Part shown: positions 3,249 through 60,684 of the stretch, piece after piece | Layout of the letters: the number at the start of each line of letters is the position of its first letter | Numbering within the stretch: position 1 is the first letter of the stretch | Assembly: GCA_020845775.1 (NCBI GenBank) | Contig: JADLFC010000121.1 | Location: 1-60,684 of the forward strand | DNA length: 60,684 nucleotides | Direction of reading: 5' to 3' | From: Deltaproteobacteria bacterium | GTDB lineage: Bacteria; Bdellovibrionota_C; UBA2361; SZUA-149; JADLFC01 | Program-made: the position numbers and the translations under genes | The notes under the pieces: generated by a model | Database searches by the model: none | The model's input: only the letters and a program-made list of their open reading frames with translations | What the model was told of the DNA's origin: nothing

Positions 3249-3309
3249 ACTTGCTCTGATCTAACATTAAAGGACATATCTGGCATGTCAAAAAAGCGCC
3301 AACAAAAAA

Positions 3310-3383
3310 TGGCCCCACCAGGACTTGAACCTGGGACCCACCGGTTATGAGCCGGTTGCTCTAACCAACTGAGCTATAGGGCC
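3310..3383 (-). tRNA. tRNA with CAT anticodon (elongator Met, or Ile2 if lysidine-modified)
   Basis: The reverse complement folds as a full cloverleaf: acceptor GGCCCTA/TGGGGCC, D stem GCTC/GAGC, anticodon stem ACCGG/CCGGT with loop CTCATAA, T stem CCAGG/CCTGG with TTCAAGT loop. No encoded CCA. It lacks initiator features (no 1:72 mismatch, no GGG/CCC anticodon stem). Confidence 0.85.
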
Positions 3384-3442
3384 ACATCGACAAAAAAGAC
3401 GCGCCTCGGAAAAAACTGGTTTCCAGACAGACTCTTTGTACT

Positions 3443-3568
3443 TATACCGTTTCCAAAAAGTAAGTTAAATATTTTACTTTTTGGAAACGGTATTTGTTGT
3501 TTATTGGCAAGTGCTTACGCACTTGCTCTTTACACCATTTACAAATATCCTTTTTGTAAATGGTGTAA
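3443..3568 (+). repeat. Triple-palindrome intergenic repeat, copy 1
   Basis: tataccgtttccaaaaagtaa-loop-ttactttttggaaacggtat, then gcaagtgc-ttac-gcacttgc, then tacaccatttacaaa-loop-tttgtaaatggtgta. It lies between the rpoD stop and the tRNA. It is the most divergent copy, about 5-6 differences from the others. Confidence 0.9.
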
Positions 3569-3661: not shown

Positions 3662-5536
3662 CTAAACTCGCTCCATAAAAGTTTTAAGTTTTTTCGATCT
3701 ACTGGGATGTCGCAATTTTCTAAGGGCTTTGGCCTCAATCTGACGGATTCTCTCTCTTGTCACATCGAAGTTTTGGCCAACCTCCTCTAAAGTATGGTCG
3801 CTACGCTCTCCAATGCCAAACCGCATCCGCAGTACCTTCTCCTCTCTTGGAGTTAACGTCGCCAGCACACGTCTAGTTTGCTCCTGCAGATTTAAATTAA
3901 CCACAGCATCCGAGGGTGAAACAATTCTCTTGTCCTCTATAAAATCTCCCAAATGACTATCGGCATCTTCTCCTATGGGTGTCTCCAGTGAGATAGGTTC
4001 TTTTGCAATCTTTAAAACCTTTCGCACCTTATCTACCGATATATCCATCTTCTGAGCGATTTCTTCGGGTGTAGGCTCTCGACCATATTCTTGCACGAGA
4101 TAGCGGGACGTGCGAACAAGCTTATTGATAGTCTCTATCATATGCACTGGTATGCGAATAGTTCGCGCCTGATCCGCGATTGCGCGCGTGATAGCTTGCC
4201 GAATCCACCAAGTAGCATAAGTGGAGAACTTATAACCCCGCTGATACTCAAACTTATCAACAGCTTTCATAAGGCCAATATTGCCTTCTTGAATGAGGTC
4301 TAAAAACTGCAGCCCTCGATTTGTGTATTTCTTAGCTAAAGACACAACGAGCCTCAGATTGGCCTCAACCAGCTCTTTCTTAGCGTTATAAACTTTTTGC
4401 TCGGCCTTAAAAATGGTCTCAACGCTGTGTTTGAGTTCCTTAAAAGCAAGCGATGTCTCAGTCTCGATACTGCTCATCACCTTCCTTGCGTCGGCTATCT
4501 CTAGAAGCAAATCCCTAGCCTCAGTGGCCTTCAACTTCAATCGCTTACAAACTCGCTTGAAAGCAAGCTGATCTCCATCGGCAATCTCATCCACCGCCTC
4601 ACATAACTCTTCCGCCGTTCGCCCCGTCAGCTTTGCCGCTTTTGCCAATACTTTATCGGCAAGCCTAAGCTTGTCGACATACGCCGACATTTTAGCAACA
4701 ATTGCTTCTCCCTGTTTAGTCGAAAGCTGCAAATCTGCAATTTTTAGCGCCGTGCGATCCCGCGCTTTCTGATACTTCTTATCGGCTTCTTTATATGCTT
4801 TAGAACCTGCCTCTAACTTCCTGATATGGGCAAACACTTCTTCAACTTGTCGAAGTGATTTTTTAATGTCGGCCGCCTTCTTAAAAAACTTCTTCTGTAA
4901 TTCCTCCTCCTCAAGTTGGGCCGCACTTTCCTTGCCCTCTGCCGGGCCCGGCTCGCCTTCCAACTCACTTACTTCGTCCTCTTCCTCCGACTCCTCGTCG
5001 ACTTCGGCAGTCTCCTCCTCTCCAAACAGATCCTTAACTCTAATAGCACCAGCCTTCACGGCCTCCTGTAGCTCCAAGACGTATATTGCTGCCACAGGTG
5101 AACGATAGAGTTCTGACTCAATTTCCTTGAGTCCTTCCTCGATTCGCTTCGCTATGATGACCTCGCCCTCACGTGTAAGCAGACTAACGCCGCCCATCTC
5201 GCGCAGGTACATTCTCACCGGATCGCCAGCCTTCCCAGCTGCATGCGTTGCAAAACCAGCTCCCAACAAATCTGAAGAGTCCGCACCTGCAAGACCAATG
5301 TCGCCACCTGTCAAAGCATCTTCGCCATCCGACTCCTCAACTTCGAGCTCTTCATCCTCACTCTCCCCTAGGATTGACAACAAATCATCAACAGGCTCTT
5401 CGCCCAGATCAACATCTGCTATTGCATCGTTTATTTCTTCAATGTTGTTAATGCCACTAGCTCTATTATCAACACCACCACCTTTCGGCGATTTCGACCG
5501 TCCCTTGCCCTTCTGTCCTACAGACTCTCTAACCAT
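3662..5536 (-). CDS. rpoD: RNA polymerase primary sigma factor RpoD (sigma-70)
   Basis: 624 aa with an acidic region 1. Regions 2-4 carry hallmark strings [53 protein letters not shown] and [30 protein letters not shown]. Confidence 0.96.
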
Positions 5537-7846: not shown

Positions 7847-8620
7847 CTAGTCGTAATCTACCAATGGCACGGCAAAAACTACGCCCAAGTCTTTTGAGCC
7901 AGTCAGGTGAAGAAGAACTTCTCCCCTGTCCGGCATGTTAAGACTAAGAGCGGCGATTTTTACTCCCTGTGCATCATTTACAGAAACCTCTGACATTCCG
8001 CTAGCCAGGGCCGTTATCGGCAGAAACTCGCCAAATTTTACAGACCCTAGCAAACTACTACCAGCTGTAACATTAATAGAAGCAGTGCCTATGTAACTGT
8101 TAAACAAGCTAAGAAAAGCCGTTCCCTCTTCGGGCCGCTGAACTACGTCTTCCCTAATGCCGACATTAACCCCTTTTCCGCGCACCTCGCCATAGACCAA
8201 GGCGGTATATTCAACACCCTTGGCAAGGTTTGTTCTAAATTCGTATCGCCCAACGCCTGGCGAATTCGCGCGTTCCAAGCTAATAAGCACTTGATCCGCT
8301 GCATCTACTGGAACATAGCGAGTAGATTCAGCGTAGCGCGCAGTTTGGACGTAGCGAGTCTTATCGCCTTCTCCATAATAAAGAGCCATAGGCGTAACAT
8401 CAATGCCGCCATGCACTATCCTAATAGCTGTTTCGTTGCTTCTCTGCGATGAACCGCCACCGCCACCACTATTTCCGCCACCACCACAGGCGCCTACAAA
8501 CAACAACGCACTAAGCAAAACAAACCAAACGGTAGCTTGCTGGCAACAAAATTGACGAACCACGATGTTATATACTAGAGTATAGGACTTGGTAATTATC
8601 ATTGCATATTTCTCATACAA
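7847..8620 (-). CDS. Lipoprotein, possibly DUF4397-like
   Basis: Signal peptide plus lipobox LLFVGAC, followed by a Gly/Ser linker CGGGGNSGGGGGS. The beta-rich body (IRIVHGGIDVTPMALYYGEG...) is reminiscent of DUF4397. The track start is TTG at 8620; ATG at 8602 is an alternative. Confidence 0.6.
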   Translation of the reverse strand: MYEKYAMIITKSYTLVYNIVVRQFCCQQATVWFVLLSALLFVGACGGGGNSGGGGGSSQRSNETAIRIVHGGIDVTPMALYYGEGDKTRYVQTARYAESTRYVPVDAADQVLISLERANSPGVGRYEFRTNLAKGVEYTALVYGEVRGKGVNVGIREDVVQRPEEGTAFLSLFNSYIGTASINVTAGSSLLGSVKFGEFLPITALASGMSEVSVNDAQGVKIAALSLNMPDRGEVLLHLTGSKDLGVVFAVPLVDYD

Positions 8621-8755
8621 GAGATGTGTTTTGCGAAGGACGCCAATCGCTATTATTTTAGCCTTTTACTGTGCTCCCGCTTATGACAGTTTCTTTACTA
8701 ACGCACTCTTTATTACTACAAGGGCTCGCAAGTGGAGCGTAATTTATTATACTTT

Positions 8756-8880
8756 TATACCATTTACAAAAAGGATTTTTGTAAATGGTATAAACAGCAA
8801 GTGCGCAAGCACTTGCCAATAAACAACAAATACCGTTTCCAAAAAGTAAAATATTTAACTTACTTTTTGGAAACGGTATA
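8756..8880 (-). repeat. Triple-palindrome intergenic repeat, copy 2 (inverted orientation)
   Basis: Its reverse complement is identical to copy 3 except for 1 nt at the left terminus. It sits in the divergent region between the lipoprotein gene (-) and lpxD (+). Confidence 0.92.
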
Positions 8881-8910: not shown

Positions 8911-9984
8911 ATGCTAGAAAATAAAGCAGAAAATAAAAATATTAAAGCAATTTCACTTAGCGATATCGCCGAACGACTTGGTGCAAAGATTCACGGCGAT
9001 GCCTCTATTGAGATTTCGGGAATAAGACCTCTTGAATCTGCCACTGCTAGGGATTTATCTTTCCTTGGAACTAGCAAGAGCTCCAAGAAAAATTTCCTCC
9101 ACCTAGCTAAACACTCACAAGCAGGTGCACTTCTTATACAAGAATATGACCCGAGCCTAGAGATGGCTCAAATCGTTACTCCCGAACCCTTAAAGGCCAT
9201 CATCTCACTAACGCCGCTCTTTGAGAAATATTGCGAAATCGTTCCAGGAATCCACCCAAACGCTTGTATTGACGAAACTGCCAGTGTCGGCAATGGCGTC
9301 TACATAGGCCCTTTTGCGGTAATAGGAGCAAATTGCGTTATCGGCGATGGTTCTATCATTCACCCGCACGTTGTGATTTATCCAGGAGCCACAATTGGAG
9401 CTGGCTGCACGATTCACTCGGGCGCAATCATCCGTGAAGGTGTAACTCTTGGCAATAATTGCCTTATTCAGAATGGCGCAGTCATTGGAAGCGATGGTTT
9501 TGGCTATATACCTGACAAACAACTTGGGCATCGCCGCATACCGCATATAGGCACCGCTGTGCTAGAAGACGACGTAGACATAGGTGCTAACGCGACTATA
9601 GATAGGGCGACTCTTGGCGAATCGCGCATAGGCGCGTGCACTAAGCTAGATAACTTAGTCATGCTCGGACATAACGTCAAAGTGGGCAAGCGAACTCTCA
9701 TGTGTTCAATGGTGGGCGTATCGGGAAGCTGCACCATCGGCGATGACGTAATTCTTGCAGGCCAGGTCGGCGTTGCCGATCACGTCACTATAGGCAACAA
9801 GGTAAGGGCAGCAGGCCAAACGGGAATTTTTAGCGATATAGAAGACGACAGAGTTATCGGCGGCACTCCACCAATGGATACTGTACGCTGGCACAAAACG
9901 AGTTCCTTGCTAAAAAAACTTCCCGATTTATTCACGCGCCTAAAAAAGCTAGAAAAACACTTAGGACTGGAAAAAAATGAATAG
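8911..9984 (+). CDS. lpxD: UDP-3-O-acylglucosamine N-acyltransferase LpxD
   Basis: 357 aa. N-terminal LpxD domain (LSDIAERLGAKIHGD) followed by a long left-handed beta-helix of hexapeptide repeats (IGDGSIIHPHVVIYPGATIGAGCTIHSGAIIREGVTLGNNCLIQNGAVIGSDGFG). Confidence 0.9.
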   Translation: MLENKAENKNIKAISLSDIAERLGAKIHGDASIEISGIRPLESATARDLSFLGTSKSSKKNFLHLAKHSQAGALLIQEYDPSLEMAQIVTPEPLKAIISLTPLFEKYCEIVPGIHPNACIDETASVGNGVYIGPFAVIGANCVIGDGSIIHPHVVIYPGATIGAGCTIHSGAIIREGVTLGNNCLIQNGAVIGSDGFGYIPDKQLGHRRIPHIGTAVLEDDVDIGANATIDRATLGESRIGACTKLDNLVMLGHNVKVGKRTLMCSMVGVSGSCTIGDDVILAGQVGVADHVTIGNKVRAAGQTGIFSDIEDDRVIGGTPPMDTVRWHKTSSLLKKLPDLFTRLKKLEKHLGLEKNE

Positions 9985-21027: not shown

Positions 21028-22410
21028 TCAAACCTCAACTGTCTGCATATGAGTAGCAGGCGCCGCGTCCCAGTTAAATTTCTTTTTTAGTGCATTAGCA
21101 AAAGCACGACTTGCTTCGGGTTCACCGTGAATTATCCTAACCTGCTTTGGCGTTCCCTTGGATTCGGCTAGCCATTTTAACAACTCATCTCTATCGGCGT
21201 GGGCAGAAAGTCCGGATATAGTGTCTACTTGTGCCCTAATGGGAATATCTTCTCCAAAAATCCTAATATACTTTGCTCCCGACTGGATTATACTTCCGCG
21301 TGAACCTCGTGCTTGGTATCCCACAAAAAGCACCGTAGTATCCTCTGAGTGAATCCAGTTCTTTAAATGATGCAAGATGCGGCCTCCAGTAGCCATACCG
21401 CTAGCAGAAATAATGATCCTTGGGCCCTTTAAATGATTTAGCGCCATGGAATCCTGCACAGCTCTACAAAAGGAAGTCTTTGCAGTTAATAGCGGAATCT
21501 TTCCCAACTCCATTAGCTTTGCGCTCTCTTCATCAAAATCATTCCGAAAGTTGTAATAAATTTTAGTAGCATCTACTGCCATGGGCGAATCGACGTAGAC
21601 CGGGATAATGGGTATTTTCCCGTCGCGCTCAAGTTCGGCTAGGTAGTAGAGTAAAGTTTGTGTACGCCCTACGGCAAATGCGGGAATAATTAGTGGCCCC
21701 CTCCTGACTACAGCAGCTTTCACTATTTGCGCTAACTCGTCTGCGACGTTCCCTTCGCCATGTATGCGGTTTCCATACGTTGACTCGCAGAGCAATAAAT
21801 CGCCAAAATCAACCGGACTAGGGGGTGGTAGCAATGGCGTATCGTAGCGTCCAATATCGCCTGAAAAAGTAATTCGCTTCTTAAAAATATCGACAGTCAA
21901 CGACACCGAACCTAAAATATGACCGGCGCAGCGAGGCTCCACTGATACGTTGGGAAGAATCTCTGTTTGTTTATCGCGCTCAATAATCTTAAAAAGTTTT
22001 AGCGTCTCTTCGACATCCTTTTCGGTATATAGTGGCTTTGCAGGATGATGCTTGGAAGTCCCAGACTTGTTGGCATAAAATGCCTCTTCCTCCTGAAGAT
22101 GCGCACTGTCGGGCAAGAGCAGTTTTAGTAGCTCAAAGGTTGCCGCCGTGCAATATATGGGCCCCGAATAACCTCGCCTCACAACTAATGGGAGATAACC
22201 ACTGTGGTCGATATGTGCATGAGTTAGAACTATCGCCGATAGCGACAAAGGGTCAAACGGCGGCTCCGCCCAGTTGCGCAAGCGAAGCTCCTTGGTTCCC
22301 TGAAACAATCCGCAGTCAAATAGTATTTTCCTACTGCCAGCCTCGACCAAGAACTTCGACCCAGTAACGGTTCCCGCTGCGCCTAAAAACGTAAGTTTAA
22401 TAGATGTCAC
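21028..22410 (-). CDS. MBL-fold metallo-hydrolase with beta-CASP / RNA-specificity domain
   Basis: 460 aa. HAHIDHSG motif, downstream beta-CASP region and C-terminal SAHAD. GTG start with a GGAGA SD 6 nt upstream. Confidence 0.85.
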   Translation of the reverse strand: MTSIKLTFLGAAGTVTGSKFLVEAGSRKILFDCGLFQGTKELRLRNWAEPPFDPLSLSAIVLTHAHIDHSGYLPLVVRRGYSGPIYCTAATFELLKLLLPDSAHLQEEEAFYANKSGTSKHHPAKPLYTEKDVEETLKLFKIIERDKQTEILPNVSVEPRCAGHILGSVSLTVDIFKKRITFSGDIGRYDTPLLPPPSPVDFGDLLLCESTYGNRIHGEGNVADELAQIVKAAVVRRGPLIIPAFAVGRTQTLLYYLAELERDGKIPIIPVYVDSPMAVDATKIYYNFRNDFDEESAKLMELGKIPLLTAKTSFCRAVQDSMALNHLKGPRIIISASGMATGGRILHHLKNWIHSEDTTVLFVGYQARGSRGSIIQSGAKYIRIFGEDIPIRAQVDTISGLSAHADRDELLKWLAESKGTPKQVRIIHGEPEASRAFANALKKKFNWDAAPATHMQTVEV

Positions 22411-22426
22411 AAAATTCTCCGCACTA

Positions 22427-22549
22427 GACCGTTTCCAAAAAGTAAGTTAAATATTTTACTTTTTGGAAACGGTATTTGTTGTTTATTGGCAAGTGCTTGC
22501 GCACTTGCTGTTTATACCATTTACAAAAATCCTTTTTGTAAATGGTATA
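22427..22549 (+). repeat. Triple-palindrome intergenic repeat, copy 3
   Basis: Same three palindromes as the other copies. The left terminus reads tagaccg instead of tataccg. It begins 17 nt from the start codon of the MBL-fold gene and ends ...aaatggtataat. Confidence 0.92.
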
Positions 22550-22671
22550 ATATTCCTCTGTGTTTTGATGGGCATTTAAGAAAAACACGCCCCTTAAGCA
22601 ATTTACTTCAGACAATTCTTACAAATGCCGACCTAAAGTCAAGGATCACTAAGGACTGTCAGTAACCTAGC

Positions 22672-51934: not shown

Positions 51935-53653
51935 ATGTATCGTTTTACTAGAAATTGCACTAGCCTCTTTTGTATACTGTTTCCAAAAAGTAAGTTAAAT
52001 ATTTTACTTTTTGGAAACAGTATTTGTTGTTTATTGGCAAGTGCTTACGCACTTGCTGTTTATAGCATTTACAAAAATCCTTTTTGTAAATGCTATAAAT
52101 TTTGCTGCCTTGCGCTAGTGGTTCTTGTTTGCCCGTCACTTGCACTAGCTGGCAAAGGAGAAATAACAGCCGTAGAAACTAGCATCGATCTCGGTGCAAA
52201 CGGCGATGCAACAGTAATGTATTACGTAAGCTGGAGGGTTTTATCAGGCGAATTTCACGGTTTTTACTTTAGCGGAAACGACCGCCTCGAAATCAGTGGC
52301 TTCCTCGATCACAGTTATGCTCTCGACTCATTTGGGAAAAGGCACAAGTTAGATATTTCGTGGGAGGGCCGCGACAAGTGGGATATCGTACTTGCTAACG
52401 GCGAGGGTGTTTCATCGGGCGATGTTCATTTCTTTCTCTTCTTTCGCAGTAATTTTAGCCGAGCGGGGTATTTAGCCCACACTAAGGCGGGGGACAAGGA
52501 CTTAGCGGTGTTTAATTGGGCTCCCGTCGAATGGGATGAAGTTGCTCCAAAGAGCCATTATACCCTACGCATTATATTTCCACATCAAGTATCAAGTGGA
52601 GTTAATTTGCGTTCTTATGTAGATAACAGGCAATTACTCCTAACCGAACCCTGGGTAAATGAGAACTACGCGATTGACTTTTTTAGGGGTGGAACAAATA
52701 ACGATGGGCTGGGAGTTCTCTTTCACAAGGAGAATCCGGGCAATCACTTTCACATGAGAGTCCAATTTTACCTGCCGTATGAGTGGTTTAATTTTCCACA
52801 AACATATGCCTCAAAACTCACTTCTGAGTTACCTCTGCATAACAAAGTTGCATTAGGAGTTGGATTTGCATTAGTTGGCATGGGATTTATTTTTGTATTT
52901 CTTGGCAAGCAACACTCCCTATTAGCAGCCCACAAGGGTTTAAATGACATCCGTTGGGAGAACATAGATTGGACCCCACCAAAACTCGAGCTATCGACAT
53001 TTCGCATAAAGGGGAAAGTGTGCAAGGATCTCTCTCCCCTCGAAGCAGCGTTCTACCTGGAAATTCCTTTGAAGCGCATTTTAAGCGGGATGCTTAGCTC
53101 CCTTGAGGAAGAAGGGTTTTTGAAAGTAATCTCCCAGTCGCCTCTTAAAGTGCAAACACTTAGGAGCAGTTATGAAGGCACTGGAACTGAGTACAGCGGA
53201 TACGAGCAATATTTCTTAAACACTCTACACGACGGAGACTTTTCGCAGGACGAGCTAGAGTCTCTGATGAATACCATCATCAAAAACATTCAAAAGAAAG
53301 CTTGGGACTGCGACATAGAAGCTACGAAAGCCTATTATGGCACTTTAGTGCACGATGCCATCGGAAAGAACACTGCTCAGGATATATTCCTTCAAGATGA
53401 GGCATGGCACCAGTGGTACCACCGATCCTCTTACCGACGAGATTTGTCGCGCGATCGAGCTAATCCATACCGCTATGAGCATGTTATGCCGGTTACCGTG
53501 GATCATTTGCTACAAGGGGTCGGAGTAAATGCCGATATGACTGCTTGTCACGATGCCTGTCATTCGGCTTGTCACTCCGCTTGCCATTCCGCCTGCCATT
53601 CAGCCTGCCACTCGGCTTGCCATTCAGCTTGCGTAAGTGGAGGTTCACATTGA
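51935..53653 (+). CDS. DUF2207-like single-pass membrane protein ending in a Cys-His tetrapeptide repeat, ACHD-(ACHS)x6-AC
   Basis: Signal-like KFCCLALVVLVCPSLALA|GKG. The ecto-domain GEITAVETSIDLGANGDATVMYYVSWRVLSGEFHGFYF and the post-TM DLSPLEAAFYLEIPLKRILSGMLSSLEEEGFLKVIS resemble DUF2207. TM at about residues 305-324. The C-terminal 38 aa are MTACHDACHSACHSACHSACHSACHSACHSACVSGGSH. The real start is uncertain because codons 13-54 are repeat copy 4. Confidence 0.7.
   Translation: MYRFTRNCTSLFCILFPKSKLNILLFGNSICCLLASAYALAVYSIYKNPFCKCYKFCCLALVVLVCPSLALAGKGEITAVETSIDLGANGDATVMYYVSWRVLSGEFHGFYFSGNDRLEISGFLDHSYALDSFGKRHKLDISWEGRDKWDIVLANGEGVSSGDVHFFLFFRSNFSRAGYLAHTKAGDKDLAVFNWAPVEWDEVAPKSHYTLRIIFPHQVSSGVNLRSYVDNRQLLLTEPWVNENYAIDFFRGGTNNDGLGVLFHKENPGNHFHMRVQFYLPYEWFNFPQTYASKLTSELPLHNKVALGVGFALVGMGFIFVFLGKQHSLLAAHKGLNDIRWENIDWTPPKLELSTFRIKGKVCKDLSPLEAAFYLEIPLKRILSGMLSSLEEEGFLKVISQSPLKVQTLRSSYEGTGTEYSGYEQYFLNTLHDGDFSQDELESLMNTIIKNIQKKAWDCDIEATKAYYGTLVHDAIGKNTAQDIFLQDEAWHQWYHRSSYRRDLSRDRANPYRYEHVMPVTVDHLLQGVGVNADMTACHDACHSACHSACHSACHSACHSACHSACVSGGSH
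51973..52097 (+). repeat. Triple-palindrome intergenic repeat, copy 4
   Basis: Differs from copy 5 only by a compensatory pair in hairpin A (tatacTg.../...cAgtat). It shares the tatagc...gctata variant of hairpin C with copy 5. It lies inside the 5' end of the long track ORF 51935..53653. Confidence 0.92.
53543..53632 (+). repeat. 12-nt tandem coding repeat (7.5 units) encoding A-C-H-(D/S)
   Basis: gct tgt cac gat / gcc tgt cat tcg / gct tgt cac tcc / gct tgc cat tcc / gcc tgc cat tca / gcc tgc cac tcg / gct tgc cat tca / gct tgc. Apart from the first unit's Asp codon, the units differ only at synonymous third positions. Confidence 0.95.
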
Positions 53654-53665
53654 GGTGACAGTTCT

Positions 53666-55051
53666 ATGCTGACGAGAGTTTTTAAACGGTTTACTAAGCC
53701 TTCTAAGCAGAACCCTAACCTTGACGAAGTGATTAGCGGCATTAACCTTTCTTGGGTCGATGAGTTCATAGAAAATGTTCGGCCATACGTTTTCGTTAGA
53801 ACAGAAGATAACATTTTAATAAAGCGCCCCAACAACGCGGTAAAGTTAAATCCATCGGGCGCTAAATTTTTGAAATTCCTATTGGAGGGCCATAAGCTAC
53901 ATGAACTCCTTAGGGCGGTTGATTCCGATGTAGCTAAATTAAAACAGCTTGAAGAATTCCTGCGAGCCGTTAGATTGCATTTGGAAAACAAGCTGGATCC
54001 TCTTGTCCATATGCCCGCAGTGGAGATCCTTCCTTTCGACATGAGTTTTAGTGAGTATCCAGTTTTGTCAGAAATCGCGCTTACGTATCGCTGTAACCTT
54101 CGATGTAAATTCTGCTACGCTGGCTGCAACTGCACGACTAATCCAGTAGGCAGCAAGCATGAACTCAGTTCGGCAAACATAAAGAAGGTTATTCATAAAC
54201 TCTTTAACGATGCAAAAGTGCCGTCAGTTAGTTTTACAGGCGGAGAGCCTACGCTCGTGAGCGAGCTTTTCGACTACATCTCCTACGCAAAAACGCTTGG
54301 AATGAGAGTAAACCTAATTACAAATGGCTCTCGCATTACAGAAAAATACGCTCAAGCCCTAAAGGAAAGCGGGTTGGACTCGGCTCAAGTAAGCGTTGAA
54401 GGAGTCAATGCTGATACTCACAATGAAATTGTGCAGGCGAGCTCATTTGCTAAATCCGTTGCTGCAGTGCGCCATTTAAGGGAAGCTGGGATATTTACGC
54501 ATTCCAATACAACTATCAATCGAATAAACTTAGCAGAATGCCTAGAGTTCCCGCGTTTCGCAAGAGACATCTTAGGTTGCAATCGCTTTAGTATGAATCT
54601 CATGATCCCCACCGGAAGCGGTGAGCTTAACGATGAGATGGTAGTGCCGTATTCTGAGATAGGGCCATACATAGAGCGCATTCGGGACGAAAGCGAAAAA
54701 GTTGGCGTGGAATTCATGTGGTACTCGCCGGTTCCCATGTGTATGTTTAACTCGATTGTAAATGGACTTGGGAACAAGGGTTGCAGTGCCTGCGACGGGC
54801 TTATTTCTATCGGCGCTAATGGAGCACTTTTACCCTGCGCTTCATATGACGAAAATTTGGGGGATTTTCTTTCCGAAGATTTTTCGACCTTGTGGAAGTC
54901 ATCTAGATCAGCGCAATTTCGCAAGAAAGATTTAGCGCACGACGCTTGCAAAAAGTGCGAGCACTTTCACATATGTAACGGCGCATGTCCCCTTTACTGG
55001 CGGAATCAAGGATACGAGGAGCTCACAAAAACTTTAGGAGACACTAATTGA
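53666..55051 (+). CDS. Radical SAM / SPASM-domain peptide-maturase-like enzyme with N-terminal RRE-like extension
   Basis: CNLRCKFC (Cx3Cx2C, residues 143-150, nt 54092..54115), FTGGEPTL, and additional Cys ligands (GCSACDG, LLPCASY). The C-terminal CKKCEHFHICNGAC is the SPASM Cx2Cx5Cx3C motif. GAGG SD 8 nt upstream of the ATG, 12 nt after the stop of the repeat-tailed gene. Confidence 0.9.
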   Translation: MLTRVFKRFTKPSKQNPNLDEVISGINLSWVDEFIENVRPYVFVRTEDNILIKRPNNAVKLNPSGAKFLKFLLEGHKLHELLRAVDSDVAKLKQLEEFLRAVRLHLENKLDPLVHMPAVEILPFDMSFSEYPVLSEIALTYRCNLRCKFCYAGCNCTTNPVGSKHELSSANIKKVIHKLFNDAKVPSVSFTGGEPTLVSELFDYISYAKTLGMRVNLITNGSRITEKYAQALKESGLDSAQVSVEGVNADTHNEIVQASSFAKSVAAVRHLREAGIFTHSNTTINRINLAECLEFPRFARDILGCNRFSMNLMIPTGSGELNDEMVVPYSEIGPYIERIRDESEKVGVEFMWYSPVPMCMFNSIVNGLGNKGCSACDGLISIGANGALLPCASYDENLGDFLSEDFSTLWKSSRSAQFRKKDLAHDACKKCEHFHICNGACPLYWRNQGYEELTKTLGDTN

Positions 55052-59225: not shown

Positions 59226-60458
59226 CTGACTCTGACTATTGACCTCACTAACTTCCTCAACTAAATCGACAAACGCAGTTGCAACGGTCTTCCAGGAATA
59301 CTTTTCTTTAACCAAATTATAAGCACTCTCCGCGAGTTGAATTTGCCGATCGCGGTTTTCCAGCAAATTTACGACTTCTTCCGCAAATTTTTCTGCGGTG
59401 TCTGCGATGACAATATCTTTCCCAGCCACTGCCTCAATGCCTTCCATGCTTATCGATGTAGCTACAACTGGTATTTTCATTGCCATAGCCGTTAAAATCT
59501 TATTCTTCACACCAGTGCCCCACCTTAAAGGACAGACGTAGACGCTTGCTTCAGCTATATGAGGCCTAACATCCCGAACTGTTCCAGTCACCACAAGGCT
59601 TGTCCCATCGTGCAGCGCTTGTACCTCTGAGGGGGGATTCTGACCAATTATCCAAACCTCAACTCCAGGAATGCGTTCCTTTATTAAGGGTAGGATCGAC
59701 TTACAAAAGTACAAAGCCGCATCGCTGTTTGGCCCATACGACATTACTCCTGTAAAAACCACCCTGCATCCGCACTTGTTCGCGTCTAGGGGCCTAAAAT
59801 ACTCCGTATCTATTCCGTGAGGTATCACCGCAAGATTCGCAGTTGGCACGTTTTGCTTAAAGGATTTAGCATCATTAGACGAAATTGCCGCTATCCGCGT
59901 CGCCATTCGCGCCGCCCATTTTTCATATCTCTCTAAGGACAAACTTTCTAAATACAACAACAGTCTCTTTGTCAACCTGGCCTCATTTTGCGCCTGTCTT
60001 CTGACTAAAAGCGACAAGCAGTCGCAAGCATCCAAAATTATCGGCAAGCGGTTATCTTCGGGCAAATACTGCATCATCTCCAAACCATCCACGTACACCA
60101 ATGCCGCTCCACTAACTTCTAAGAACCGCTTAACCATATCCGCTGTAGCGCGATGATAGGCTGGATTCGAATACTTGCTTACTAAAGATGCCACCTGGTG
60201 AATTCTGTGCCACTGCCGATCCCACCAATTGCCGCAAGATAAAACTGGCCACTCCTCTATAGTTTCAAAAATATCTGCTCCATCTATCTCCGAACGGAAC
60301 CAGCTACTTAACTCTTCTGTTTTTTTTAGATACATCAAATGTAGTCTATTGTGTTTGGCCAAGAGTTTACAAAAATAAAAAAGCCTGGGAGAACCAGGCA
60401 TACTCGGCGTGACAGGAACATTTGATGCCAAAACGAGGATATTCATTAAAAACGCCAA
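59193..60458 (-). CDS. GT4-family (GT-B fold) glycosyltransferase
   Basis: C-terminal half with VVFTGVMSYGPN and the PLRWGTGVKNKILTAMAMKIPVVAT (E/GxxK) motif. The track start is TTG at 60458; the ATG at 60446 (MNILVLASN) looks more typical. Confidence 0.85.
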   Translation of the reverse strand: MAFLMNILVLASNVPVTPSMPGSPRLFYFCKLLAKHNRLHLMYLKKTEELSSWFRSEIDGADIFETIEEWPVLSCGNWWDRQWHRIHQVASLVSKYSNPAYHRATADMVKRFLEVSGAALVYVDGLEMMQYLPEDNRLPIILDACDCLSLLVRRQAQNEARLTKRLLLYLESLSLERYEKWAARMATRIAAISSNDAKSFKQNVPTANLAVIPHGIDTEYFRPLDANKCGCRVVFTGVMSYGPNSDAALYFCKSILPLIKERIPGVEVWIIGQNPPSEVQALHDGTSLVVTGTVRDVRPHIAEASVYVCPLRWGTGVKNKILTAMAMKIPVVATSISMEGIEAVAGKDIVIADTAEKFAEEVVNLLENRDRQIQLAESAYNLVKEKYSWKTVATAFVDLVEEVSEVNSQSQLARGTGSLEA

Positions 60459-60462
60459 TCGC

Positions 60463-60482
60463 TATACCGTTTCCAAAAAGTA
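60463..60482 (+). repeat. Solo left arm of the triple-palindrome repeat
   Basis: tataccgtttccaaaaagta matches the first 20 nt of the repeat exactly and then diverges (taacaagaaag). It lies 78 nt upstream of full copy 5. Confidence 0.8.
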
Positions 60483-60559
60483 TAACAAGAAAGACCGCAT
60501 AAACAGGCAAACTGCCCTGGTTTTGCAAAATATAGCATCTGCCACAAAAACAAGAAATT

Positions 60560-60684
60560 TATACCGTTTCCAAAAAGTAAGTTAAATATTTTACTTTTTG
60601 GAAACGGTATTTGTTGTTTATTGGCAAGTGCTTACGCACTTGCTGTTTATAGCATTTACAAAAATCCTTTTTGTAAATGCTATA
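60560..60684 (+). repeat. Triple-palindrome intergenic repeat, copy 5 (ends at window edge)
   Basis: Full 125 nt, 123/125 identical to copy 4. Same tatagc...gctata hairpin C variant. Confidence 0.92.

Follow-up and report, generated by a model that had tools for sequence, protein, structure and literature searches.

A TA-flanked, three-hairpin repeat, probably a MITE family, in one uncultured 'deltaproteobacterial' lineage

Introduction

The closest named family to the repeat described here is the Correia element (CREE/NEMIS). Like our repeat, Correia elements are non-coding units of about 105-155 bp with terminal inverted repeats that start with TATA and with TA flanks, and they occur in many copies, mostly upstream of or between genes and at times disrupting coding sequences. 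To our knowledge, the transposase of the Correia elements has long been unknown. They have been reported only from Neisseria (PMC2649163), whereas the host here is an unrelated phylum-level lineage. The Rickettsia palindromic elements (RPEs) are palindromic repeats of about 100-150 bp that are found in-frame in unrelated genes, where they are read as a stop-free conserved peptide (PMC10969869). The host here is unrelated to Rickettsia as well, and a sequence relationship to the RPEs is not expected.

Another group of small palindromic repeats depends on single-stranded DNA. The REP/BIME/REPIN sequences of the RAYT system resemble the present repeat in being interspersed palindromic units with compensated stems and a fixed mosaic structure. 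Elements derived from IS200/IS605 have subterminal, imperfect hairpins and insert next to a fixed tetra- or pentanucleotide on the 5' side without duplicating it. In the known cases that are mobilised by HUH/Y1 enzymes, the stems are short, imperfect and subterminal.

Here we describe a 125-nt repeat with three perfect hairpins and TA at both ends, which an initial annotation had noticed from the letters of one contig. We followed its copies within the contig, in other contigs of the same metagenome-assembled genome (MAG) and in independent assemblies, and compared it with the described systems.

Results

The window and its repeat copies

The window is the whole stretch of DNA that was analysed, 60,684 nt of contig JADLFC010000121.1 (assembly GCA_020845775.1). 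It is ordinary chromosome with murG-like, rpoD, dnaG, lpxD, gdh, trpS/tyrS-type and xseA/B genes, a flagellar flg cluster, and radical-SAM and glycosyltransferase genes. When its RpoD (3662-5536) was compared with 185,579 species representatives, the best of them were only about 45-54% identical across most of the protein, and the top matches were MAGs of Bdellovibrionales, 'Deltaproteobacteria', Acidobacteriota and Rokubacteria. The host seems to branch deeply and to have no close sequenced relative among these representatives.

Repeat finding and alignment gave five copies of 125 nt each, which are 94-99% identical, and one 23-nt remnant. This confirmed the five full copies and the solo arm that had been annotated in the 60 kb, with coordinates correct within 1-2 nt. 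As had also been stated, copies 2 and 3 differ at one position and copies 4 and 5 at two. The copies are:

Copy 1: 3443-3567, plus strand; TATACC...GGTGTA, flanked by the rpoD stop (3662, minus strand) and by tRNA-Met (3309-3384, minus strand)
Copy 2: 8756-8880, minus strand; reverse orientation, with a DUF4397 gene (7847-8602, minus strand) and lpxD (8911-9984, plus strand) diverging on either side
Copy 3: 22425-22549, plus strand; first letters TAGACC, between divergent genes
Copy 4: 51973-52097, plus strand; 87 nt past the flgL stop, within the open +0 frame of ORF 51935-53653 (DUF2207-like)
Copy 5: 60560-60684, plus strand; upstream of a PEP-CTERM-type glycosyltransferase gene (minus strand, ATG at about 60446), its final base being the window end
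Remnant: 60463-60485, plus strand; 23 nt, TATACCGTTTCCAAAAAGTA followed by TAA, a left terminal arm fused directly to a right-end-like TATAA

The similarity between the five copies ended abruptly at TATA...TATA, and the flanking contexts were unrelated. The left flanks (ACT, TGC, CAC, TTG and ATT) had no common motif, and the right flanks shared only an A-rich start. The 20-nt arm ATACCGTTTCCAAAAAGTAA had 11 matches in the window at up to 3 mismatches where 0.01 were expected, a 17-mer arm motif had 20 (0.23 expected) and hairpin B had 8 (0 expected). The apparent density was about one copy per 12 kb. Four of the five copies have the same orientation, which is not significant, and three of the five lie directly upstream of genes. 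The remnant was unchanged in four other sequencing runs and is probably an internally deleted sixth insertion.

Only 4 nt separate the left end of copy 3 from GGAG, the ribosome-binding site of a beta-CASP/MBL gene (GTG at 22410, minus strand), and a 135-aa ORF begins 122 nt to the right of the copy. For the beta-CASP protein (21028-22410, minus strand), the best NCBIfam match was the type VII CRISPR 'Cas14' with 391 bits against a cut-off of 800 bits, in a region without CRISPR context; it is probably an ordinary beta-CASP RNase. The tRNA-Met (anticodon CAT) is 58 nt from copy 1, and its promoter must hence be located either within these few nucleotides or in the element or past it. An identical 13-mer, CGCCAATCGCTAT, was found at 8641-8653 and 60453-60465, at or shortly ahead of the start of two minus-strand genes, each with a copy of the element beside it. 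It was rejected as a signal since one such exact repeat is, by our estimate, at about chance level in 60 kb.

Anatomy and folding of the unit

The order of the parts was the same in all copies: hairpin A, a spacer, hairpin B and hairpin C, all three hairpins being perfect, with stems of 20 bp (A), 8 bp (B) and 19 bp (C). In copy 3, taken as representative, they are:

Hairpin A: 22426-22475, plus strand; perfect 20-bp stem ATACCGTTTCCAAAAAGTAA/TTACTTTTTGGAAACGGTAT with the 10-nt loop GTTAAATATT
Hairpin B: 22489-22508, plus strand; GCAAGTGC-TTRC-GCACTTGC, a GC-rich 8-bp stem
Hairpin C: 22511-22551, plus strand; consensus TTTATACCATTTACAAAAA-TCC-TTTTTGTAAATGGTATAAA, up to 19 bp, its right arm being the right terminal inverted repeat

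The spacer that follows hairpin A is invariant and T-rich (TTGTTGTTTATTG). The loop base R of hairpin B distinguishes two subfamilies: copies 2 and 3 read TTGC, and copies 1, 4 and 5 read TTAC. Hairpin C is bracketed by TA on either side; its full 19-bp stem reads TTTATACC...GGTATAAA, and in copy 3, where the right flank is ...GGTATAAT, the stem has 18 bp. The three hairpins thus fold as had been described, and only stem C is longer than the 15-17 bp given for it.

The arms of A and C are related to each other, as the initial annotation had claimed, and carry the same 17-nt motif TATACC(G/A)TTT(C/A)CAAAAA. This motif occurs four times per unit and elsewhere in the 60 kb only in the remnant. 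Paired tail to tail, two of them make up hairpin A and the other two hairpin C, their outer ends being directed outwards, and the two outermost motifs are imperfect 18-nt terminal inverted repeats that match at 16 of 18 positions (left end TATACCGTTTCCAAAAAG, right end in reverse complement TATACCATTTACAAAAAG). All five copies begin with TA and end with TA and then A. Since a solo hairpin A, B or C was not found in the window, the copying unit is taken to be the whole 125 nt.

The three-hairpin fold forms on either strand, with structure z values of about -11 to -14. As RNA, the plus strand folded with -59.6 kcal/mol (z = -11.5) and the minus strand with -56.4 kcal/mol (z = -14.0); as DNA, the plus strand folded with -42.7 kcal/mol (z = -13.4). 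No shuffle was as good in any of the three cases. The six-frame translation gave read-through frames without a self-contained ORF. One frame per strand is stop-free, and the predicted peptide of the +0 frame would be hydrophobic and transmembrane-like with flanking lysines. A small toxin-like ORF was considered and rejected, as the element has no in-frame start or stop codon.

Compensatory changes in the stems

Ten of the 125 columns vary across the alignment of the five copies. Six of these columns make up three base pairs that have changed on both sides with Watson-Crick pairing kept:

Positions 6/47: C:G to T:A, copy 4
Positions 91/123: T:A to C:G, copy 1
Positions 93/121: C:G to G:C, copies 4 and 5

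The pair of copy 4 is private to it and lies in hairpin A (ATACTG/CAGTAT), that of copy 1 is private and lies in hairpin C (TACACC/GGTGTA), and copies 4 and 5 have TATAGC/GCTATA in common. One-sided changes that retain pairing did not occur, so the changes are without wobble intermediates, and 98.7% of the cells within the three stems are paired. The uncompensated changes are at a stem end (position 3, copy 3) or beside a loop (position 104 in copy 1, an unpaired A>T adjoining loop C). When the pairings were slid as a control, no double changes were obtained.

The orthologous copy 1 was then compared in Logan contigs. It reads TATACC in four runs and TATGCC in one (SRR30756388; seen in the L002 tail, equivalent to about 3563 of the window), whereas the window has TACACC. 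The double change of copy 1 is therefore recent, at the strain level. At copy 4, the outer TA is TG in SRR30202054 and SRR30202055 (tails of L050 and L051, equivalent to 51973-51975). The Watson-Crick symmetry on both strands, including the C:G to G:C transversion pair, fits template switching at the DNA level or selection for hairpins on both strands, and fits less well with an RNA structure formed from one strand only.

Copies within coding sequences

Further copies were sought by protein searches with peptides translated from the open frames of the element. At least four were found inside predicted proteins of one NCBI 'Deltaproteobacteria bacterium' MAG (IT291_ tags), in P0001, P0002/P0027 (one gene), P0028 and P0029, on five different contigs. 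The accessions of the MAG proteins are MCC6219814, MCC6220726, MCC6220929, MCC6220975 and MCC6221548. Together with the window, nine copies are known. The peptide of the -0 frame alone gave no candidates as a protein query; P0001 was obtained with a concatenated query. The initial annotation had named confinement to the window as a finding that would speak against it, and copies on other contigs of the same MAG were found instead. Its statement that all copies are intergenic has to be corrected, since copy 4 lies inside the open ORF 51935-53653 and the MAG copies lie inside predicted coding sequences.

P0002 and P0027 represent one DUF2723/TMEM260-like gene that is split over two contig ends, and the end of the former and the start of the latter carry the identical 42 element-encoded residues in the same open frame. 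P0002 covers positions 1-73 of the PF11028 profile (TMEM260-like O-mannosyltransferase) and P0027 continues to position 172. When the halves were joined with the insert, PF11028 matched in two stretches with 130.2 bits, whereas the joined protein without the 41 residues gave a single stretch from 1 to 172 with 140.8 bits. That the removal of 41 residues restores one contiguous Pfam match argues for an insertion of the element into the DUF2723/TMEM260-like gene. Judged by the profile, it demonstrably breaks a conserved PF11028 domain in-frame, and this provides an 'empty site' at the profile level. The gene is lengthened by a multiple of three, in agreement with 123 nt, the 125 nt of the element less one TA.

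P0001 has gained from the -0 frame a basic segment of 43 residues, which stands between the charged N-terminus and the hydrophobic core of a signal peptide. Copy 4 lies directly before the signal-peptide-like segment KFCCLALVVLVCPSLALA of ORF 51935-53653. The homologues of this ORF begin (MKKxF...) where copy 4 ends, which places the copy at or just upstream of the ancestral start.

The same ORF has a tandem 12-nt repeat at its C-terminal end (53543-53626) that encodes (ACHS)n, and a radical-SAM/SPASM gene (53666-55051) directly follows it. An ACH[DS] tail is also present in the distant homologues P0018 and P0025. This suggests a conserved Cys/His-rich C-terminal tail, which may be modified by, or bind a metal with, the neighbouring enzyme.

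Independent assemblies

The genes of the window were present in Logan assemblies of seven sequencing runs, SRR11294019/22/32/33, SRR30202054/55 and SRR30756388. At all five sites, the Logan contigs break about 27-33 nt into the element, yet they cross the 23-nt remnant. The k-mer size of Logan is shorter than the element, and on this basis the breaks are those that a repeat with many copies should cause in a de Bruijn graph. The MAG copies and the Logan loci L001-L005 and L049-L060 likewise lie at contig ends. The repeat is probably a main cause of fragmentation in short-read assemblies of this genome.

We considered whether the repeat itself might be an artefact of contig ends or chimeras, or a set of chance palindromes. 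Copy 5 stops exactly at the window end and other MAG copies are at contig ends, as an artefact would predict. However, four copies are internal to the window and the same junctions recur in the independent assemblies of the seven runs, which effectively refutes an artefact, and the match counts given above far exceed the shuffle expectation for chance palindromes. Both explanations are hence extremely improbable.

An empty site at the DNA level was not found: the five sites and the remnant were occupied in every run examined. Recent mobility, the duplication of TA and the mobilising enzyme are therefore inferred.

Searches for the family outside the MAG

The exact pattern of hairpin A had no match in the 185,579 species-representative genomes, and the motif was found in none of 42 distant rpoD loci. 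A looser hairpin-A pattern gave one match only in JGI metagenomes, on an unrelated contig and not to a family member. This match (Ga0210349_1056033, L006 499-534) is a 17-bp hairpin that shares the inner arm TTTCCAAAAAGTA and is missing the TATACC end. The contig is very AT-rich, and the hairpin lies beside a tRNA-like sequence (read by eye); it is probably a chance terminator-like hairpin.

With Rfam at the gathering threshold, only two tRNAs passed in the window. The element itself gave sub-threshold matches of the hairpin type with up to 31.7 bits against cut-offs of 40-211 bits, and blastn against plasmids gave chance matches only (E >= 1). Rfam yielded nothing meaningful at E-value thresholds either. 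A match to a known family, also named at the outset as a finding that would speak against the observation, was thus absent from Rfam, plasmid and other searches. The family appears to be confined to one lineage.

A transposase, RAYT or Y1 gene was not detected among the main ORFs of at least 100 aa in the window by Pfam and NCBIfam scans, with precomputed Pfam matches of Logan used for the flagellar genes. The initial remark that the window encodes no transposase or RAYT holds at this scope. An integron attC site was rejected for want of core sites, and a CRISPR because there is no array.

Discussion

A probable non-autonomous, TA-flanked element

Our preferred explanation, to which we give a probability of about 0.6, is that the element is a non-autonomous, TA-flanked MITE that has terminal inverted repeats and is restricted to a single uncultured 'deltaproteobacterial' lineage. 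It has the generic features of MITEs: a size below about 500 bp, no transposase coding, terminal inverted repeats and many dispersed copies. A transposase encoded elsewhere in the genome would bind the 17-18-nt motifs and excise or copy the unit, which would then be inserted at a TA that becomes duplicated. The TA ends would suggest a DDE enzyme of the IS630/Tc1-mariner kind. For the target-site duplication, the occupied sites show TA at both ends in five of five copies, with TG in one strain variant, and a frame-keeping gain of 123 nt. This frame preservation would, however, equally be given by a 126-nt element without target duplication.

On balance, each insertion would add 123 nt, which are 41 codons. 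Since this length is divisible by three and each strand has a stop-free frame, genic insertions can survive as in-frame additions of 41 residues. Outside genes, the element would come to sit in intergenic spaces. The palindromes might be kept perfect by template switching within quasi-palindromes, or by selection for hairpins. Template switching of this type is established from E. coli genetics. Any influence on nearby genes, for example through hairpin A acting like a terminator in one orientation or through displaced promoters or start codons, would be a by-product.

Alternative explanations

The perfect palindromes speak against the proposed MITE, as a DDE enzyme that reads double-stranded ends has no need of them or of their compensation. 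They would be accounted for if an HUH/Y1 enzyme mobilised the element as single-stranded DNA, in the manner of REPINs and RAYT or of IS200/IS605 derivatives, with hairpins A and C as the recognition structures. Similar hairpins are indeed found at both ends, the element is very stable as single-stranded DNA, and its stems are maintained by exact compensatory Watson-Crick changes without wobble, one of which arose between strains; the common orientation of four of the five copies would also fit, though it is not significant. However, the stems are 19-20 bp long, perfect and AT-rich and extend to the very ends. A conserved GTAG/GTGG head or a tetra- or pentanucleotide in one flank is missing, both ends carry TA, some copies lie inside genes, and a Y1 gene is absent from the window. 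We therefore consider mobilisation as single-stranded DNA unlikely. A further possibility, with a similarly low and slightly smaller chance, is that the ends are homologous to those of Correia elements and are moved by the same transposase class, or that the perfectly maintained terminal palindromes mark an undescribed MITE route that needs hairpin or cruciform ends. If either were true, this lineage would be a second, independent system for identifying the Correia-class or hairpin-end enzyme, favoured by the very high copy density and by in-frame insertions that add a transmembrane-like 41-residue module.

The stems could also be conserved for a host function, the unit being a selected terminator or attenuator, an RNase III substrate or a protein-binding array that is spread by recombination rather than as selfish DNA. 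Hairpin A with ATTTGTTGTT scores terminator-like on the plus strand. Three of the five copies are directly upstream of genes, the sequence is very highly conserved with maintained stems, and all sites are fixed in every run seen. Against this, the orientation is inconsistent with the flanking transcription: copy 1 after rpoD is read in the non-terminator orientation without a T-tract, copies 2 and 3 lie between divergent genes, copy 4 follows flgL in the orientation where hairpin A and ATTTGTTGTT look like a terminator, and copy 5 is upstream of a glycosyltransferase gene. Moreover, copies interrupt coding sequences, including the conserved glycosyltransferase domain. A promoter scan found no sigma-70 consensus promoter in the element. 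A sigma-54 promoter in hairpin B (TGGCA...TTGC) was rejected since the GG-to-GC spacing is 9 and not 10 and the GC is lost in the TTAC copies. A host function is thus quite improbable, and the proposal that the repeat is a major regulatory element is not borne out by its position and orientation relative to the neighbouring genes. Because these are inconsistent, a sigma-70 promoter is missing and the sigma-54-like spacing is wrong, any change in expression is, in our view, a side effect of a selfish element.

Significance

With the TA-flanked MITE as the preferred explanation, a well-defined family is added from a deep-branching uncultured bacterial lineage. Besides the elements of Rickettsia, it is a second clear example of a palindromic repeat that persists in-frame within conserved genes, and it shows that DNA palindromes are maintained by exact compensation on the timescale of strains. 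Should the resemblance to Correia elements be homology, it may help towards finding the Correia transposase; otherwise, the element is selfish DNA of an ordinary kind, whose side effects on gene starts and transcription are local.

Comparison with known systems

The initial annotation had compared the repeat with REP/BIME clusters, Correia/NEMIS elements and TA-targeting MITEs. The likeness to MITEs and Correia elements is upheld by the small size, the non-coding and multi-copy nature, the imperfect terminal inverted repeats and the TA ends, whereas the likeness to REP/BIME is not. REPs and REPINs are short, imperfect palindromes with a GTAG/GTGG head, but here no hairpin foot carries such a head, the stems are perfect over 8-20 bp, and the order A-B-C does not vary. 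REPs are extragenic, while the present element has copies in the DUF2723 domain and in the N-terminal coding regions of P0001 and ORF 51935. In contrast to the subterminal hairpins of IS200/IS605 derivatives, the hairpins here are terminal and perfect.

Hairpins A and C look like two minimal pairs of transposon ends, of which the outer ends point outwards. By analogy with composite transposons, the outermost ends could mobilise the whole 125-nt unit. The modules of composite transposons are IS elements, whereas the modules here have 39-50 bp and encode nothing, and neither A nor C occurs alone in the window.

The RPEs are resembled in behaviour only, as seen in the DUF2723 gene, at the N-terminus of P0001 and in ORF 51935. 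RPEs lie in coding genes, whereas the copies in the window are mostly intergenic.

The terminal arm matches the Correia repeat TATAG[CT]GGATTAACAAAAATC at 17-18 of 19 positions after a 2-nt gap, the aligned ends being TATAGCGGATTAACAAAAATC in Correia and TATA(C/G)C--ATTTACAAAAATC here. In shuffles, the consensus arm reached a p value of about 0.016 for this similarity and the variant of copies 4 and 5 one below 0.0005, which is suggestive of homologous ends but not proof. The 26-bp Correia repeat TATAG[CT]GGATTAACAAAAATCAGGAC, expected at both ends of a Correia element, is matched here only in part, with nothing past position 21, and outside the terminal 19-21 nt there is no similarity. Correia elements form a single long-range stem between their ends, whereas the present element forms local perfect hairpins, each terminal repeat pairing with an adjacent inverted copy, and a third hairpin between them. 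The Correia core has an IHF site, and the core here is a T-rich spacer with hairpin B. The IHF site and the outward sigma-70 promoter of Correia elements were not detected in the element, nor does its sequence show a WATCAANNNNTTR motif. The species representatives closest in RpoD (up to about 54% identity) are not Neisseria. Since the core and the long-range fold differ, the present element is not a Correia element. In conclusion, it is best read as a new family of Correia/RPE-like MITEs, a kind of selfish DNA that is itself well known.
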